Part shown: in pieces, positions 38,819 through 61,747 of the stretch
Position numbering within the stretch: position 1 is the first letter of the stretch
Layout: every line of letters begins with the position of its first letter
Assembly: GCA_963793305.1 (NCBI GenBank)
Contig: CAWBZV010000003.1
Coordinates: forward strand, 576,001 to 640,000
Reading direction: 5' to 3'
Source: an uncultured Gemmatimonadales bacterium
Lineage (GTDB): Bacteria > Gemmatimonadota > Gemmatimonadetes > Gemmatimonadales > Gemmatimonadaceae
Length of the DNA: 64,000 nt
Notes under the pieces: model-generated
What the model saw: only the letters and a program-made list of their open reading frames with translations
Databases searched by the model: none
What the model was told of the DNA's origin: nothing
Position numbers and translations under genes: made by a program

Positions 38819-40755
38819 GCTCATCTCTCGTCAGCGTCATTGATATAGAATCACAACCGGATCCAAGCGCACTGGAGGCGGGGATTGCCCGCGCGTCCAA
38901 GGCGCTGATCGCGCAGCAGGATAGTGAGGGGTATTGGCGGTTCGATCTCGAGGCCGATTGCACGATCACGGCCGAGTACATCCTGATGATGCACTTTATG
39001 GACGAGATCGACTCGCCACTGCAAACGCGGCTCGCCAAGCACCTGCGAGCGAAGCAGGAAGCGCACGGTGGCTGGGGCTTGTTCCACGGCGGCGCGTTCG
39101 ACCTCTCATGCTCGGTCAAGTGTTACTACGCGCTCAAGATGGCCGGCGAGAGCCCCGAAGCGCCGTACATGTTGCGCGCGAAGCGGGCCATCTTGGCACA
39201 TGGTGGCGCCGCCAAAGCCAACGTGTTCACGCGCATCACCCTGGCGCTGTTCGAGCAGATCCCCTGGCGCGGGTGTCCGTTCCTCCCCGTCGAGATCGTG
39301 CTCCTGCCGCGGTGGTTCCCGTTTCATCTCACGAAAGTCTCGTACTGGTCGCGCACCGTCATGGTGCCGCTGGCCATTCTGTGCAGCTTGAAGCTCCGCG
39401 CCCGCAACCCGCGCCGCGTCGACATCCGTGAGCTGTTCGTCACGCCGCCGGAAAAAGAGAAAGAATATTTCCCGGCGCGATCGACACTGAGTCGCGCGTT
39501 CGCGGCACTAGACGCCATCGGTCGGAAAAGCGAGGCGCGGATTCCCAACGCTGCTCGTCGTCGCGCGTTGCTCCGCGCCACGCGCTGGTTCACCGCCCGC
39601 CTCAACGGCACCAATGGACTCGGCGGCATCTTCCCCGCGATGGTCAACGCGTACGAAGCACTCGCCGCCTTGGGATACGGCTACGATCACCCATATCGCG
39701 TGCAGGCGAGAGAGGCGCTCAAGAAATTACTCGTGGTCGGCGAAGAGACCGCCTACTGCCAGCCGTGCGTCTCACCAGTGTGGGATACCGCACTGGCCAC
39801 GCTCGCTCTCCAGGAAGTCGGTGATGAGGCGGCGGAAGTCGCGGCCGACCGGGCGCTCGACTGGTGCGTCTCCAAGCAGCTCAAAGAGGCTCAGCCTGGC
39901 GATTGGCGGGACGTACGACCGGGCGTCCGAGGCGGCGGCTGGGCGTTCCAGTTCGCGAATCCCCACTATCCCGATCTCGACGACACGTCAGCGGTCGCCT
40001 GGGCCATGTCGCAGTCCGGCTCCCGCGCGCGCTATAAGGAGTCCATGGCCTCGGCGGCCGAATGGATCGTCGGGATGCAAAGTCGAAACGGTGGGTTCGG
40101 TGCGTTCGATGCCGACAACACCGCGCGGTATCTCAATCAGATTCCGTTCGCGGATCACGGCGCGCTGCTCGATCCGCCCACGAGCGACGTCAGCGCGCGC
40201 TGTGCGCTGGCGCTCGCACGCTACGGCCGGCCTGAGCATCGGTTCGCGTTGACGCGCTGTCTCGCGTTCTTGCGGGACGAACAGGAGCCCGCGGGCTCTT
40301 GGTTCGGGCGCTGGGGAACCAACTACGTCTACGGCACGTGGTCGGTGCTGACGGCGCTGGAACAGGCCGGCGGGCCCGCTGATCGCGCGGTGATCGCGCG
40401 TGGCGCGGCATGGCTCGAGAATCGGCAGAATGCCGACGGTGGCTGGGGCGAGTCGAACGAGAGCTACTGGGACCAGGGCTGCGTTTCCCGGCGCGATCCC
40501 AGCACCGCATGTCAGACTGCCTGGGGTGTCCTTGGGCTTCTTGCTGCCGGGGAGGTCGATTCGGCCGCGGTGCGGCGCGGGGTCGCGTATCTCCTCTCGC
40601 GGCAGGACGCGGACGGGCAGTGGGACGATCCGTGGTTCAACGCGCCCGGGTTCCCGCGAGTGTTCTTCCTCAAGTACCACGGGTACGCCAAGTACTTCCC
40701 GTTGTGGGCGCTGGCGCGATACCGCACGCTGACGCGCTCAGGCGCGGCGGCGTGA
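38815..40755 (+). CDS. shc: Squalene-hopene cyclase
   Basis: SPVWDT, YPDLDDT (DxDD), QW repeats, GFPRVFFLKYHGY. Confidence 0.96.
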   Translation: MSSSLVSVIDIESQPDPSALEAGIARASKALIAQQDSEGYWRFDLEADCTITAEYILMMHFMDEIDSPLQTRLAKHLRAKQEAHGGWGLFHGGAFDLSCSVKCYYALKMAGESPEAPYMLRAKRAILAHGGAAKANVFTRITLALFEQIPWRGCPFLPVEIVLLPRWFPFHLTKVSYWSRTVMVPLAILCSLKLRARNPRRVDIRELFVTPPEKEKEYFPARSTLSRAFAALDAIGRKSEARIPNAARRRALLRATRWFTARLNGTNGLGGIFPAMVNAYEALAALGYGYDHPYRVQAREALKKLLVVGEETAYCQPCVSPVWDTALATLALQEVGDEAAEVAADRALDWCVSKQLKEAQPGDWRDVRPGVRGGGWAFQFANPHYPDLDDTSAVAWAMSQSGSRARYKESMASAAEWIVGMQSRNGGFGAFDADNTARYLNQIPFADHGALLDPPTSDVSARCALALARYGRPEHRFALTRCLAFLRDEQEPAGSWFGRWGTNYVYGTWSVLTALEQAGGPADRAVIARGAAWLENRQNADGGWGESNESYWDQGCVSRRDPSTACQTAWGVLGLLAAGEVDSAAVRRGVAYLLSRQDADGQWDDPWFNAPGFPRVFFLKYHGYAKYFPLWALARYRTLTRSGAAA

Positions 40756-51143: not shown

Positions 51144-51221
51144 AGCTCGCTAGAGCGAGCTTGGTCCAACCGACCAGTCGAGCAGCGCGAAGCGCGGCCT
51201 CGACGCGCGGCGGAGCCGCGC
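51144..51221 (+). repeat. REP-like repeat, copy 3
   Basis: AGCTCGC-TAGA-GCGAGCT, TGGTC-CAACC-GACCA, GTCGAG...GCGCGAAGCGC...CTCGAC, GCGCGGC-GGA-GCCGCGC. Confidence 0.85.
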
Positions 51222-59796: not shown

Positions 59797-60153
59797 ATGA
59801 AAACTCCACTGTACGGCCTCATCCTCGGCGGCGCGCTCGGCATCTTCGACGGCCTCTCCGCCCTCGTCTCAGCTCCCGAAGTCGCCCCCCAAATCGTTGG
59901 TATCGTCGTCGGCTCGACCATCAAGGGACTCATCACGGGCGTGCTGATCGGCGTCTTCGCCCGCAAGGTCCACTCATTTCCACTCGGTCTGGCATTCGGC
60001 CTCGCCGTCGGGATCTTGTTCGCGTACGGCGTCTGTGTGATGAACGTATCGACTGGCCAGAAACCTTATTACTGGCAGATCATGCTGCCCGGCGCGATCC
60101 TCGGGCTCATCGTTGGATACGCTACACAGCGTCATGAAACGATGACGGGCTAG
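59797..60153 (+). CDS. Small membrane protein
   Basis: 118 aa, four Gly-rich hydrophobic segments. Confidence 0.75.
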   Translation: MKTPLYGLILGGALGIFDGLSALVSAPEVAPQIVGIVVGSTIKGLITGVLIGVFARKVHSFPLGLAFGLAVGILFAYGVCVMNVSTGQKPYYWQIMLPGAILGLIVGYATQRHETMTG

Positions 60154-60247
60154 CGGCTCGAGTCTATCAGATTCGGGTCGCTAGCTAGTGGCGAACGATT
60201 TGTCGGGCGTGTGTCGCAGCATCCAATTCTCATCCAGAGCGTAGAGT

Positions 60248-60333
60248 GCCCGGGTGGTGGAATTGGTAGACACACCGACCTCGCAAATCGGTGACCCGAA
60301 AGGGTCGTGCGGGTTCGAGTCCCGCTCCGGGCA
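60248..60333 (+). tRNA. tRNA with Leu-type body and CGC (Ala) anticodon
   Basis: Full cloverleaf: GCCCGGG/TCCGGGC acceptor, A73, Leu-type D-arm GTGGAATTGGTAGACAC, long variable arm GACCC-GAAA-GGGTC, GCGGG-TTCGAGT-CCCGC; anticodon 60282-60284. Confidence 0.88.
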
Positions 60334-60452
60334 CGCTAGCTAGCGCCATTGCCTGTACGAGCGTGATTGCATAAATTGTGGTTACTTGCGAGGTCGGTGT
60401 GGGGCTCCGGGGAGAAATCCTCGGGGCTTTTCACATCGGGGGAGTTCACCTG

Positions 60453-60488
60453 TTGACTTTCGGGATATCTTCGGGTACAATGTTCGGG
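60453..60488 (+). promoter_or_regulatory. Near-consensus sigma70 promoter; leaderless start
   Basis: TTGACT(60453)-17 nt-TACAAT(60476); GTG 6 nt downstream at 60488. Confidence 0.7.
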
Positions 60489-61747
60489 TGGAGAAGGATC
60501 TTCCGCTCGAGCAAAAACTCGCGATTCTGACAGATCTGGCGACCGACGATCGCGAAGGACCGCCGCCGCCGCGGCTGCGCAATACGAAGTCAGTCGGCGC
60601 GCTCCGACCGCTGAATATCAGACAGATACGAGTCGGACGGTGGAAGACGTCGCTGCTGCGCATTCTCATGACGAATGCATGCAGCTACAACTGCCACTAC
60701 TGCCCAATGCGCCGCGACCGGAACATGCCGCGGACGCTGCTCAAGCCCGAGGAGCTCGTCAAGATCTTCCTCGCGGCGAGGGCCAAGGGATGGTGCGAGG
60801 GGCTGTTCATTACCACTGGCATCCCTGGTCGGCCGCAAAAGGTGATCGATGACCTGATCACCGTGCTCGAACTGCTGCGAGTCAAGCACAAGTTCACGGG
60901 CTACGTGCACGTGAAGATGCCACCGGGCGGACAACCGGCGCAGATCGAGCGACTAACGGCGCTGGCGAGTCGCGTGTCGATCAACCTCGAGACCCCGTGC
61001 GGTCAGACGTTGGAGCAGATCGCGCCGGAGAAGAGTCTCAGCGAGACGCTGGTCAGCCTGGAGCGCTCGCGCACGCTCGTCAATCTCGCGCGCGAAGCCG
61101 AGCGGGATGGGAAGCAGCGCGACCTGTTGGCGCCCGGTGGTGTCGCCGGGATGACGATGCAGTTCGTCGTGGGTGCTACGCCCGATGATGATCGGTCGAT
61201 CGTCGGCCGCGTGACGGCACTCTATGCCGGAGGCGGCATCCATCACGCACATTTCTCCGCCTTCCGCCCGATCCGCGACACGCCCATGGAGAACACCCGA
61301 GCGACTCCCGCTCTGAGAGAGCAGCGGCTGTATCAGGTGGATTATCTCCTGCGCCAGTACGGATTCGGACCGGGCGAGATCGTCTATGACGACACCGGTC
61401 ATCTCCCGCTCGTCACCGACCCCAAGTACGCTTGGGCCCTCGCGCATCCGGCGTCGTTTCCGGTCGAGGTGACGACGGCCGACTATGAGACGCTCATGCG
61501 GGTACCCGGCATCGGCCCGCTCTCGGCCCGCCGACTCGTGGCCGAGCGCCACGCAACCGCGATCCGCGGCCTCGCGGATCTCAGAAAGCTCGGCGTGATC
61601 ACCAAGCGCGCGGCCGGATTTGTCACGCTCCGCGGCCGCCGGCTCAATCCGGTCCGGTGGGAACAACAGCTCGGGATCTGGCGACCCGAAGACGAGATTG
61701 GTAGCTATCATCGGGTATACGAAGTCAGTCCCGGAACATTTCGATAG
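60488..61747 (+). CDS. Putative DNA modification/repair radical SAM protein with HhH (TIGR03916-like)
   Basis: LMTNACSYNCHYC, EGLF, SINLE, APEK, REQRLYQVDYLLRQYGF, LMRVPGIGP. Confidence 0.88.
   Translation: MEKDLPLEQKLAILTDLATDDREGPPPPRLRNTKSVGALRPLNIRQIRVGRWKTSLLRILMTNACSYNCHYCPMRRDRNMPRTLLKPEELVKIFLAARAKGWCEGLFITTGIPGRPQKVIDDLITVLELLRVKHKFTGYVHVKMPPGGQPAQIERLTALASRVSINLETPCGQTLEQIAPEKSLSETLVSLERSRTLVNLAREAERDGKQRDLLAPGGVAGMTMQFVVGATPDDDRSIVGRVTALYAGGGIHHAHFSAFRPIRDTPMENTRATPALREQRLYQVDYLLRQYGFGPGEIVYDDTGHLPLVTDPKYAWALAHPASFPVEVTTADYETLMRVPGIGPLSARRLVAERHATAIRGLADLRKLGVITKRAAGFVTLRGRRLNPVRWEQQLGIWRPEDEIGSYHRVYEVSPGTFR

Follow-up and report, generated by a model that had tools for sequence, protein, structure and literature searches.

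Only a few natural tRNAs are known to break the genetic code on purpose, which raises the question of how cells put up with them. In type I toxin-antitoxin systems, such as tisB/istR-1 and hok/sok, an antisense RNA targets the mRNA of a small toxic peptide, and the hok mRNA is an inert precursor closed by pairing of its 5' and 3' ends. T-box leaders recognise tRNA by anticodon pairing, and the 3'ETS-leuZ sponge is a piece of a tRNA transcript that pairs with sRNAs. The build of the allo-tRNAs is Ser/Sec-like. The nematode nev-tRNAs were charged only with leucine in vitro, where GGG was decoded as Leu (Hamashima et al. 2012, PMC3333845, in the sections available). In the RNA-RNA system CreTA ('type VIII'), Cascade mediates the action of the antitoxin, and the toxin, a mini-mRNA, sequesters a tRNA (PMC8501985, PMC9458426). 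The locus analysed here carries a tRNA with a leucine-type body and an alanine anticodon and, directly downstream, a predicted antisense small RNA (sRNA). It lies in a 64,000-nucleotide stretch of DNA from an uncultured soil bacterium of the Gemmatimonadales, the whole of which we call the window, and comprises the following features:

60176..60247, + strand: conserved 5' leader, recognised by folds and complementarity, with an inferred role
60179-60188, + strand: leader segment CGCTAGCTAG, which can pair with the trailer (complementarity)
60196-60215, + strand: leader segment imperfectly antisense to the anticodon arm
60211-60229, + strand: leader motif GTGTCGCAGCATCCAATTC, an interrupted antisense copy of the D-arm
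60248..60333, + strand: class II Leu-type tRNA with anticodon CGC at 60282-60284 (ARAGORN; Rfam RF00005; direct reading; family cloverleaf)
60334..60345, + strand: 3' trailer CGCTAGCTAGCG, complementary to leader 60179-60188 (10-bp match in the window's subfamily)
60349..60377, + strand: promoter-like element of the small RNA, TTGCCT-17 nt-TAAATT (looser scan, 8/12)
60384..60432, + strand: predicted antisense sRNA of about 49 nt, ends approximate (fold; layout common to 41 modules)
60386..60401, + strand: 16-nt seed, whose reverse complement is identical to tRNA bases 24-39 (local alignment, BLAST)

The earlier note on this DNA had described a complete, Leu-like cloverleaf of 86 nt with a CGC anticodon, and three approaches agree on it: ARAGORN called a tRNA with anticodon cgc at 60248-60334, the RF00005 match spans 60248-60333 end to end (model positions 1-71) and scores 49.7 bits, where the gathering threshold is 29, and direct reading gives the same structure. 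The acceptor stem is GCCCGGG/UCCGGGC, with pairs C3-G70 and G7.U66, and the discriminator is A73, with CCA not encoded. The D-arm reads GUGG-AAUUGGUAG-ACAC, the anticodon stem CCGAC/AUCGG and the anticodon loop CU-CGC-AA, with U33 present; the variable arm is long (GACCC-GAAA-GGGUC) and the T-arm is GCGGG-UUCGAGU-CCCGC. Both A73 and the C31.A39 mismatch in the anticodon stem, pointed out before, were seen again in this reading. The acceptor of 7 bp and T-stem of 5 bp, in the window tRNA as in its family, make up the ordinary 7/5 layout. A second sample of the same study supplied a 278-nt DNA contig (X2, record 10) that covers 60100-60347 with identical tRNA bases; its sole difference, at 60135, lies outside the tRNA, and this base check was made on assembled contigs, not raw reads.

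The G3:U70 wobble pair is the mark by which AlaRS knows tRNA-Ala, and the window copy, with C3-G70 as the earlier note had it, is without this mark. Pair 3-70 is CG in 25, GC in 11 and UA in three of the 39 aligned family members, and never GU. The LeuRS identity set, from E. coli and Aquifex work, includes A73, a Leu-type D-arm and a long variable arm (cf. PMC2377443). A73 is kept in 38 of the 39 aligned members, the window copy included. The window D-arm, GGYGGAAYYGGYAGACRC, has a layout common to the genome's Leu tRNAs and unlike that of its Ser and Tyr tRNAs, and the Leu-type features found are a 3-4-bp stem, the placement of G18G19, A14, A15 with U48, and the long variable arm. Overall identity to the closest Leu tRNAs is 70-78% (63-78% over all five), a range that Ser tRNAs overlap by reaching 75%, and Ala tRNAs stand at 56-63%. 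The tRNA would be a descendant of tRNA-Leu, and we propose that, because the features read by LeuRS are kept and the alanine mark is gone, it would be loaded with leucine and yet read GCG through its CGC anticodon. Considered on its own, this tRNA would best be explained as a dedicated leucine mistranslator.

The genome contains all five tRNA-Leu isoacceptors and one LeuRS gene, as well as two canonical tRNA-Ala(CGC) genes (74 and 76 nt), of a kind that the earlier note had proposed to look for in related genomes; with these sets also present, the window tRNA is extra, not a replacement. GCG, previously put forward as an Ala codon common in the window, comes out as the most-used codon of this genome in a crude count. 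The odd tRNA exists here in three diverged copies, the other two (C3:451773 and C3:709202) being likewise 86 nt long, with CGC, and on the same contig. Their neighbours are ordinary chromosomal genes, among them those for a sigma factor, kinases, a membrane protein and a radical SAM enzyme, with no defence or mobile islands; neither direct repeats nor an integrase was found beside the odd tRNAs, and a protein neighbour common to the three genome loci was not found. As a separate observation, a BLAST search of the genome with all predicted tRNAs as queries showed many partial tRNA copies at island borders, and next to one island the anticodon arm of a tRNA-Arg recurs as an imperfect inverted copy of 25 nt.

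Related genomes, searched for a Leu-type body with a foreign anticodon as the earlier note had suggested, yielded a family with several anticodon identities (Ala, Val, Asp, Glu, Arg and Ser). Compensatory changes on both sides occur at 20 of the 25 cloverleaf pairs among 39 aligned members, related genomes being non-independent samples in all such family counts, and four relatives score 45-58 bits against RF00005. U33 and a purine at 37 are kept in 16/16 members found by similarity. Many others were collected with a pattern that fixed Y32, U33, C36 and R37, so conservation at these positions counts only in the 16; the anticodon patterns used for the search left out NAU. The phylum sample of 35 members, 30 from the main search and five with GCG from a further one, has the anticodons CGC (11), GAC (6), CAC (5), GCG (5), GGC (3), AGC (2), CUC (2) and GUC (1). 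The codons GCG, GUC, CGC, GCC, GAG or GAC are read by 28 of these 35, and all six are within the eight most-used codons of the window's genome by crude count. Members with Val anticodons (A35, C36, A73) might perhaps be charged correctly by ValRS and hence be harmless.

These anticodons bear on a suggestion of the earlier note, that the tRNA is a non-ribosomal leucine donor whose anticodon is free to drift. Such a tRNA would feed a tRNA-dependent transferase or a peptide-forming enzyme, with the sRNA tuning its availability, and both the retained leucine identity marks and the surplus of the tRNA over the decoding set would suit that role. However, an L/F-transferase match was not found in the genome (92% complete), the three copies are without a common protein neighbour, and the conserved, biased anticodons (28/35) and U33/R37 would be left unexplained. 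The suggestion did not hold up well, and we regard a donor role as very unlikely.

Across the phylum, modules of the odd tRNA with its downstream unit occur in 18 of the 401 Gemmatimonadota genomes sampled (13 of 148 genera), a carrier often having 2-4 copies; Planctomycetota records and two viral contigs have them as well. At one orthologous locus in four species, the flanks are 92-94% identical and the tRNA 81-84%, with anticodons CGC, CUC, CGC and CAC. The GAC gene L006 of one relative, considered as an ortholog of the window locus, is a paralog instead, with unlike flanks. Patchy, multi-copy, insulated and fast-changing, the modules behave in their sequences in a manner typical of an accessory or selfish element.

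The window sRNA gene starts about 50 nt downstream of the tRNA. Its seed covers one strand of each of two tRNA stems, the 3' one in the D-stem and the 5' one in the anticodon stem, together with the anticodon loop, anticodon included, and ranks first of 69 against non-cognate downstream regions in local alignment. The predicted RNA runs from an open 5' seed through a G+C-rich hairpin to UUUUC; in a fold of 60381-60437, the first 15 nt are unpaired and the hairpin has -27 kcal/mol (z -4.1). The general module order is tRNA, about 15-45 nt, a sigma-70-like promoter, and a unit of about 50-80 nt that ends in a terminator-like hairpin, and the first ~20 nt (18-20) of each unit are the reverse complement of its own tRNA's anticodon arm, anticodon included. 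Across 41 modules, the -10 hexamer ends 4-10 nt upstream of the antisense stretch, a hairpin and T-run lie behind it, and the promoter-like score averages 8.6, compared with 4.0 in shuffles (8/12 in the window copy). A stricter scan called neither of the window's signals (promoter 8/12 at a cut of 9; terminator 4 T at a cut of 5), and the sRNA promoter and terminator calls come from a looser scan together with the conserved spacing. In Rfam, only the tRNA matches (the window at the gathering threshold; five loci at E<=1).

The seed and the anticodon arm covary. In the 41 modules, which were selected for the presence of a partner before pairing was measured, mean arm pairing is 0.885, compared with 0.598 +/- 0.018 when partners are permuted (maximum 0.657 in 1000 permutations). 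Bases 28-41 of the tRNA are paired in 85-100% of these modules, compared with 37-58% after permutation, and the anticodon bases are paired with the seed in 97-100%, with 2-5 pair types each. For 15 of 17 tRNAs, the best pairing is with their own downstream unit; among 69 unique tRNAs, the own unit ranks first in 36, and 47 pass a cut on score and rank. A downstream antisense match of at least 22 is present at 0/46 ordinary tRNA-Leu genes and at 2/84 class I tRNAs. These comparisons use local alignment, which replaced RNAduplex runs of whole tRNAs against 190 nt downstream; the latter were dropped as uninformative, since every partner gave long, interrupted duplexes. Since a co-evolving, predicted antisense gene, of which the earlier note made no mention, stands beside each family member, the window locus is, judged by sequence, a two-RNA module rather than a lone odd tRNA.

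The locus might instead be a tRNA-Leu duplicate in decay, or a product of misassembly, that lies by chance next to an inverted partial repeat left by recombination, and the partial tRNA copies at the genome's island borders and the inverted tRNA-Arg arm speak for such an origin. Against this, compensatory changes preserve the cloverleaf in the three paralogs and in dozens of homologs, the second sample's contig has identical tRNA bases, the odd tRNAs are without adjoining direct repeats or an integrase, and in 41 modules seed and arm covary while promoter and terminator keep a constant spacing. Decaying stems, the pseudogene outcome that the earlier note had foreseen, were looked for in the 39 members and not seen, because the gene is conserved with compensatory changes. 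We consider this origin most improbable, and the sequences indicate that the window tRNA is neither an error nor a pseudogene.

Module design is not uniform, because the sRNA of the paralog C3:451773 aims at the variable arm and D-loop instead of the anticodon arm. Paralogs are insulated from one another in pairing. In modules of the Planctomycetota type, the sRNA targets the variable arm, and the GUC anticodon is still kept in 5/7, with differing anticodon stems. The C3:709202 copy has a second, tandem sRNA-like unit behind it; a search of the assembly for a matching tRNA found no zero-mismatch match except the unit's own site, and two-mismatch matches were at control level.

A rival reading is an RNA pair that never decodes, in which the tRNA shape is a stable scaffold, processed by RNase P and Z, that displays a variable stem-loop; as sponge and regulator, the stem-loop would titrate or be titrated by the adjoining sRNA, with an output outside translation. 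The strongest signal, RNA-RNA covariation, needs no ribosome, the arm and seed sequences evolve fast, one copy's sRNA targets the variable arm, and some family members have C55 in the T-loop (GTCCGAA), unusual in a working tRNA. However, the acceptor pairs turn over but neither A73 nor any part of the Leu-type D-arm changes, U33 and the purine at 37 are found in all 16 similarity-found members, the anticodons form a narrow set that fits the most-used codons, GUC is conserved even outside the sRNA's coverage, and the variable seeds are without another apparent target. On balance, we think a non-decoding pair unlikely, though it is the rival to be taken most seriously.

The two roles might also be reversed, with a harmful sRNA that docks on the loop of the ordinary tRNA of the same anticodon and the Leu-type tRNA as a decoy antidote with longer complementarity. 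In this direction point the 6-7 nt of the seed that also fit the loop of an ordinary tRNA-Ala(CGC) (UUCGCAA, C11 copy) and the precedent of CreT, a tRNA-sequestering RNA toxin (PMC8501985, in the part available). The complementarity to the ordinary tRNA ends at the loop, however; a contact of 6-7 bp is unlikely to deplete an abundant tRNA, and a decoy needs no preserved LeuRS identity marks, so that we rate this arrangement as decidedly unlikely.

The leader adds a further layer at the window copy. Leader, tRNA and trailer fold together with -85.4 kcal/mol (z -5.2), the leader pairing with the 5' half of the tRNA. As a general cognate antisense in cis, the leader was rejected: its cognate specificity is not general, because a leader reaches the top 3 for its own anticodon arm in only 4 of 41 cases. 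There is a weaker, non-specific complementarity between leader and tRNA 5' half (median score 22, compared with 15 for ordinary Leu tRNAs). Loss of the cloverleaf in the minimum free energy fold does not discriminate, occurring in 30/41 odd and 44/54 ordinary Leu precursors. Leader-trailer pairing was likewise set aside as a general feature, being weak across all modules (mean score 12.7 vs 10.5 in shuffles; at least 7 bp in 12/41) and clear only in the window's subfamily.

RNA libraries from three studies yielded contigs, 90-95% identical, that span the leader and tRNA; they may be carried-over DNA and give only a hint of transcription. Such contigs do not mark transcript ends, and the stop of two of them at 60347 is uninformative because a DNA contig stops there too. 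Of the RNA-library contigs aligned to 60100-60480, none falls over 60360-60480, the sRNA region, which, for assembled contigs, is no gauge of absence.

Taken together, we tentatively favour, at slightly less than an even chance, a reading in which the module is a leucine-charged missense tRNA that targets the most-used codons and is held in check, much as in a toxin-antitoxin pair, by an antisense sRNA co-evolving with it. We infer that both RNAs are transcribed and that the tRNA is leucylated and decoded on the ribosome. The sRNA would dock first on the exposed anticodon loop and then invade the anticodon stem, giving a duplex that could not decode and may be cleaved, so that pairing would neutralise the missense tRNA and keep it silent as long as the sRNA is produced. 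Once sRNA supply fell, leucine would be inserted at abundant Ala codons; other family members would place it at codons for Val, Asp, Glu or Arg. The device would follow the logic of antisense-controlled toxin-antitoxin or of regulated mistranslation, its biological purpose being presumably one of these. In the window copy, the long leader folding back on the tRNA 5' half may hold the precursor inert.

A more specific form of the favoured reading, which we hold to be possible but doubtful, is an all-RNA addiction or abortive-infection device, with a tRNA toxin, a self-locked precursor and a short-lived antisense sRNA that neutralises it molecule for molecule. Transcription of the module would stop through locus loss, phage shut-off or stress, the stable tRNA would outlive the sRNA, and leucine substitutions would flood the proteome. 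An arms race, or selection for insulated paralogs, would then lie behind the rapid change of anticodon and seed from species to species.

A dedicated antisense RNA that recognises a tRNA by its anticodon arm would be a candidate answer to how cells tolerate tRNAs that break the code. If the favoured reading is true, the modules would provide orthogonal tRNA/anti-tRNA pairs of programmable specificity, ready for synthetic biology. Even without decoding, a tRNA-shaped RNA co-evolving with an adjoining sRNA in two phyla would be an RNA-RNA class absent from Rfam.

A search of open-access papers and bioRxiv did not find a tRNA-plus-antisense module, and comparison with known systems shows where this family stands. 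Like the nev-tRNAs, it is class II and apparently tRNA-Leu-derived, with non-Leu anticodons, but nev-tRNAs are eukaryotic and tend to match rare codons, with no antisense partner reported in the available sections of PMC3333845, whereas this family is bacterial, matches most-used codons and has a co-evolving antisense sRNA gene for each tRNA. With the tRNA-ProX of Streptomyces and Kitasatospora (ProA, ProT and ProN), it shares the nature of a bacterial accessory tRNA whose body and anticodon identities differ, as well as a patchy occurrence, and ProX has been proposed to cause deliberate mistranslation; tRNA-ProX, however, has a proline-type body, A33 and a protein partner, the second ProRS (ProRSx), and antisense control is not reported in the accessible text (PMC11415595). 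With a class II Leu-type body, U33 and no ProRSx among its neighbours, the window tRNA is not a tRNA-ProX. Allo-tRNAs are similarly bacterial, with a long variable arm and many mismatched anticodons, but their acceptor/T stems are 8/4 or 9/3, whereas the family here has 7/5, A73 and a Leu-type D-arm; membership was rejected on the acceptor of 7 bp and T-stem of 5 bp, and Mukai et al. 2017 (PMC5389517) contains no occurrence of the words tRNALeu, LeuRS, antisense or Gemmatimonad.

Among RNA-based controls, a T-box riboswitch, which would have a Stem I specifier and a T-box antiterminator ahead of a regulated gene, was rejected, given that Rfam matches only the tRNA, that a terminator closes the sRNA unit and that a separate promoter serves the next gene. 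Unlike in T-box leaders and 3'ETS-leuZ, the predicted pairing invades the anticodon stem, and the unit is stand-alone and specific to one accessory tRNA. Unlike in CreTA, the target would be the tRNA itself. The resemblance to type I toxin-antitoxin systems lies in an adjoining predicted antisense sRNA with its own promoter-like element and about 20 nt of complementarity, and possibly in a precursor that, as with hok mRNA, may be inert through 5'-3' pairing; type I proper was rejected, since the antisense target is a tRNA and no peptide gene is involved. Like antisense toxin-antitoxin modules, those described here are multi-copy, patchy, fast-evolving and mutually insulated. If the favoured reading is true, the two-RNA module of tRNA and antisense RNA would comprise, to our knowledge, the first cellular sRNA with a specific tRNA as its target and the first tRNA to form the dangerous half of a toxin-antitoxin-like pair.

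In a conserved family of leucine-type tRNAs with non-leucine anticodons, every member is accompanied by a gene-like unit that begins, at its 5' end, with a co-evolving antisense of the anticodon arm. In the window, the pair comprises the following features:

Features of the tRNA and of the unit behind it
60248-60333, + strand: complete tRNA (ARAGORN, anticodon CGC; Rfam RF00005 end to end, 49.7 bits, gathering score 29)
60349-60377: promoter-like TTGCCT, 17 nt, TAAATT (sequence reading)
60386-60401: 16-nt seed, exact antisense of tRNA bases 24-39 (sequence comparison)
end near 60432: G+C-rich hairpin, then UUUUC (sequence reading)

All the structural details of this tRNA described in the earlier note were recovered on reading the sequence, with ARAGORN and Rfam in agreement. 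The acceptor stem is GCCCGGG/UCCGGGC with C3-G70 and discriminator A73, the D-arm is GUGG-AAUUGGUAG-ACAC, the anticodon stem CCGAC/AUCGG includes C31.A39 and closes a CU-CGC-AA loop, the long variable arm bears a GAAA loop, the T-arm is normal and CCA is not encoded. The bases, which had been left for confirmation in raw reads, are borne out by a second-sample DNA contig spanning 60100-60347 with a sole difference at 60135, that is, by a contig rather than by raw reads. At low depth, a DNA run and an RNA run, one of each, show a related allele in which 60284 is G; its anticodon would then be CGG. RNA-library contigs from three studies span leader and tRNA at 90-95% identity, at most a hint of expression.

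The body of this tRNA classes as leucine-type. Its D-arm has the layout of the Leu tRNAs of the same genome (5.72 Mb, 26 contigs, 65% G+C), and identity to the closest Leu tRNAs is 70-78%, compared with 56-63% to Ala tRNAs; two Ser tRNAs reach 72-75%, so it is the D-arm and A73, rather than overall identity, that support the call. Bacterial LeuRS charges its tRNAs without regard to the anticodon. The genome has one LeuRS gene, and no L/F-transferase was found in it.

ARAGORN predicted 62 tRNAs genome-wide. The set of five tRNA-Leu isoacceptors is complete, and tRNA-Ala(CGC) is present as two ordinary genes, one of 74 nt and one of 76 nt. Also among the 62 are three long 'tRNA-Ala(cgc)' genes, all on contig C3, whose positions 576001-640000 are the window: one at 451773, the window copy at 636248 and one at 709202; their stems diverge throughout (anticodon stems GUCGA/UCGAC, CCGAC/AUCGG and GCAGC/GCUGC), with folding kept in each and the loop YU-CGC-AA common to all. 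When 41 related genomes were searched at the DNA level and the loci obtained were passed to ARAGORN, this body was recovered with CGC, as well as with other anticodons:

Loci from relatives with the same tRNA body, by anticodon (ARAGORN)
CGC: L004, L005, L033, L034, L036
GGC: L008
GAC: L006, L009
CAC: L012
GUC: L007
CUC: L035, L040
GGA: L041

Across 39 aligned family members the cloverleaf is maintained, with both-side changes in 20 of 25 pairs; A73 is present in 38 of 39, and pair 3-70 is CG in 25, GC in 11, UA in 3 and G.U in none. The window-type tRNA is an extra, multi-copy, conserved gene. A pseudogene or artefact is excluded for practical purposes. Five aligned members (L059, L074, L100, L117, L119) have the T-loop GTCCGAA, with C at the universal U55 (pseudouridine) position.

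The earlier note had treated the window copy as a lone tRNA, an account that gives way to a short cognate antisense unit, missed there, behind each of the three C3 copies: each unit starts with the reverse complement of its own tRNA. The window seed targets the D-stem 3' strand, the anticodon-stem 5' strand and the loop with the anticodon, and in the fold of the predicted RNA from 60381 the first 15 nt are open and a hairpin has -27 kcal/mol (z -4.1). The C3:709202 copy has a 20-nt exact match between unit and its own, different arm; the C3:451773 unit matches the variable arm (14 nt) and D-loop (9 nt) instead of the anticodon arm. Rfam gave no family besides tRNA in the window or in five loci. 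Downstream of the window unit lies a gene for a radical SAM protein with a helix-hairpin-helix domain (60453-60481 and 60386-61747, +); the promoter of this gene (TTGACT, 17 nt, TACAAT) is its own and close to consensus, so the gene is not transcribed by read-through from the sRNA unit. At C3:708990-709100, on the minus-strand side of C3:709202 (L002/L222), the first sRNA is followed in tandem by another unit running from promoter to terminator, with the stem complement unchanged and TTCCTGGG in place of TTGCGAGG. No tRNA matching this second unit was found in the assembly, where 0 mismatches occur at its own site only and 2-mismatch matches are at control level.

By duplex energy, the own unit was the best partner for 15 of 17 tRNAs (-30 to -47 vs -13 to -34 kcal/mol), the exceptions being C3:451773 and L044, an ordinary tRNA-Leu(CAG); paralogs within one genome were insulated from one another's sRNAs. 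A scan of genome contigs for the D-arm of tRNA-Leu with, after it, an anticodon that has C as its last base yielded at least 120 loci, and in 62 of those listed the pattern lies in an ARAGORN tRNA; many of the other 58 among the matches listed are probably intron-bearing tRNA-Leu genes, as in viral contigs, and group I introns may be the cause. The pooled set, which draws on the matches listed, comprised 69 unique tRNAs whose available downstream sequence was 120 nt or longer. By local alignment, with the register re-optimised for every non-cognate pair, the own downstream region ranked first for 36 of these 69, and 47 of the 69 listed had a score of at least 22 and a rank of 4 or better; the 22 without a partner were L044 and a group of loci of which most come from other phyla (Saccharibacteria, Acidobacteriaceae, Bacteroidota, Firmicutes, others). 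For 41 of the 47, the anticodon lies within the antisense stretch; the remaining six are L001, L065, L116, L121, L144 and L158.

These 41 modules were selected for having a partner, with the register optimised on cognate pairs. Within them, tRNA bases 28-41 are paired in 85-100%, vs 37-58% with sRNAs permuted among modules, and mean pairing over bases 24-43 is 0.885 vs 0.598 +/- 0.018 (1000 permutations, of which the highest gave 0.657). At each of the three anticodon positions, pairing is 97-100% and 2-5 pair types occur. The promoter-like score before the seed averages 8.6/12 vs 4.0 in shuffles (at least 9 in 22 of 41), and the -10 hexamer ends 4-10 nt, most often 7, before the seed, which would therefore be the transcript 5' end. 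A middle hairpin and a terminator-like hairpin with T-run follow, for a unit of 45-80 nt overall. As controls, a downstream antisense match of at least 22 occurred in 0 of 46 ordinary tRNA-Leu genes (maximum 20) and in 2 of 84 class I tRNAs, and genome-wide BLAST returned exact antisense of at least 16 nt to any tRNA anticodon arm only for the window and C3:709202 seeds.

The genome holds other tRNA-derived repeats. An ordinary tRNA-Arg(ACG) (C10 53911-53986, minus) has an inverted copy of its anticodon arm about 168 nt downstream (25 nt, 23/25 bases, one of the two mismatches inside the anticodon), at the edge of an apparent island whose boundary is marked by a 43-nt direct repeat of the tRNA 3' half at 51174-51216. 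Halves of tRNAs are also repeated directly and exactly, over 41-57 nt, at distances of 1-20 kb from their parent genes (Leu-CAA, Ile-GAU, Gln-CUG, Pro-GGG, Ala-UGC, Gly-GCC, Met, others) on many contigs, for example C5:1544433-1544485, C2:464597-464641, C4:36390-42012 and C5:618065-618108. They are mostly 3' halves; tRNA-Ser(CGA) has two, 5' halves, on another contig. We read these repeats as the signature of several integrated islands, partly tandem. A 90-nt 'tRNA-Arg(acg)' called by ARAGORN at 40291-40380 (+), one of several oddities (79-100 nt elsewhere), had no Rfam match at gathering threshold and is thus probably a false positive in G+C-rich DNA.

The three C3 copies sit among ordinary genes with none in common (sigma factor, Ser/Thr kinases, radical SAM enzyme, mutS, TonB-like gene, PP2C, S9 peptidase). 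The genes upstream of the window tRNA encode a sigma factor of the ECF type, a Ser/Thr kinase and a putative membrane protein of 118 aa without Pfam match. At the locus after mutS in four species, flanks are 92-94% identical (274/298, 277/295; 86% in the fourth) and the tRNAs 78-84%, with anticodons CGC, CUC, CGC and CAC; the tRNA thus evolves faster than its surroundings while still folded, and the seed tracks its changes in three of the four species, the exception being L001.

Upstream, the best promoter-like match ends 64-82 nt before the tRNA in 27 of 41 modules, at low scores (4-9/12), and a long leader on the tRNA transcript is therefore likely. Its conserved motif, GTGTCGCAGCATCCAATTC in the window, can be read as antisense to the D-arm, with interruptions. 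Leader, tRNA and trailer of the window fold at -85.4 kcal/mol (z -5.2), the predicted precursor pairing leader with tRNA 5' half and CGCTAGCTAG with trailer. Leader complementarity to the tRNA 5' half has a median of 22 in modules vs 15 in ordinary Leu tRNAs, but is cognate-specific only rarely (4 of 41), and only the window's subfamily shows a clear leader-trailer stem. That the precursor locks itself is therefore an idea rather than a finding.

Of 401 genomes sampled from the phylum, 18 contain the C36 pattern; they belong to 13 of 148 genera and without exception to the window's own order (families f1 3/93, f2 12/166, f3 2/5; nine others 0/136), with up to four copies per carrier. Its 30 matches carry CGC (11), GAC (6), CAC (5), GGC (3), AGC (2), CUC (2) and GUC (1). 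With the complementary pattern (neither A at position 35 nor C at position 36), the phylum sample yielded seven matches: five GCG (Arg) with an antisense unit (L177, L178 by script; L179-L181 by reading, only partial in L181), and UGG members L175 and L176, for which the script returned no partner. Among the matches listed, modules of the same layout with GUC (5) or UUC (2) occur in Phycisphaerae, Phycisphaerales, Thermoguttaceae and Planctomycetaceae records and two untitled loci; their sRNA is antisense to bases 27-59, chiefly the anticodon-stem 3' strand and variable arm. Two of 40 viral-contig matches (L185, at 37% G+C with CCA encoded, and L200) combine tRNA(GCC), promoter and antisense unit.

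Many other viral-contig matches (L183, L186-L188, L192-L194, L201, L202, L205, L212, L215, L216) show no T-loop within reach past the anticodon loop; L193 and L216 resemble tRNA-Leu(UAA) genes with the loop interrupted by a group I intron, and the remainder may be similar. Intact Leu-type class II tRNAs with non-Leu anticodons occur in Candidatus Saccharibacteria (L053, L118, L127, all ACC) and, with UGC, UCC or UGG, in L055 (Acidobacteriaceae), L062 (Reyranella), L095 (Dehalococcoidia), and L175 and L176 (Gemmatimonadota); most encode CCA and have no antisense unit downstream. Partnerless hybrid Leu-bodied tRNAs thus seem scattered over several phyla.

By crude count of long open frames, GCG is the most-used codon of the genome (55 per 1000), followed by GGC, CGC, GCC, CTC, GTC, GAC and GAG, and the family anticodons read six of these eight. 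We propose that LeuRS would charge the odd tRNA, because it ignores the anticodon; that the misreading tRNA would put in leucine at abundant codons; that the sRNA would dock on the anticodon loop, invade the stem and neutralise the tRNA; and that the balance of the two RNAs would set the level of mistranslation. This whole chain is, in our tentative judgment, the most economical mechanism, with a probability a little short of even. The main rival, which we consider improbable, is an RNA-RNA regulator on a tRNA scaffold that does no decoding. In the Planctomycetota-type modules, GUC is kept although anticodon stems differ and the sRNA leaves the anticodon uncovered, which argues for a role of the anticodon itself. 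For the tRNA and its antisense sRNA together, the patchy occurrence, the copy number, the insulation and the rapid co-diversification are easier to reconcile with a toxin-antitoxin-like or defence-like element than with a housekeeping one.

No tRNA module with an antisense sRNA of its own came up in the full-text literature searched, which leaves most subscription journals outside and so does not prove absence. In the portions consulted of the papers on nev-tRNAs (PMC3333845), tRNA-ProX (PMC11415595) and allo-tRNAs (PMC5389517), no antisense partner is reported. Taken by itself, the tRNA would be new as a bacterial counterpart of nev-tRNAs, with tRNA-ProX and allo-tRNAs as its cousins.
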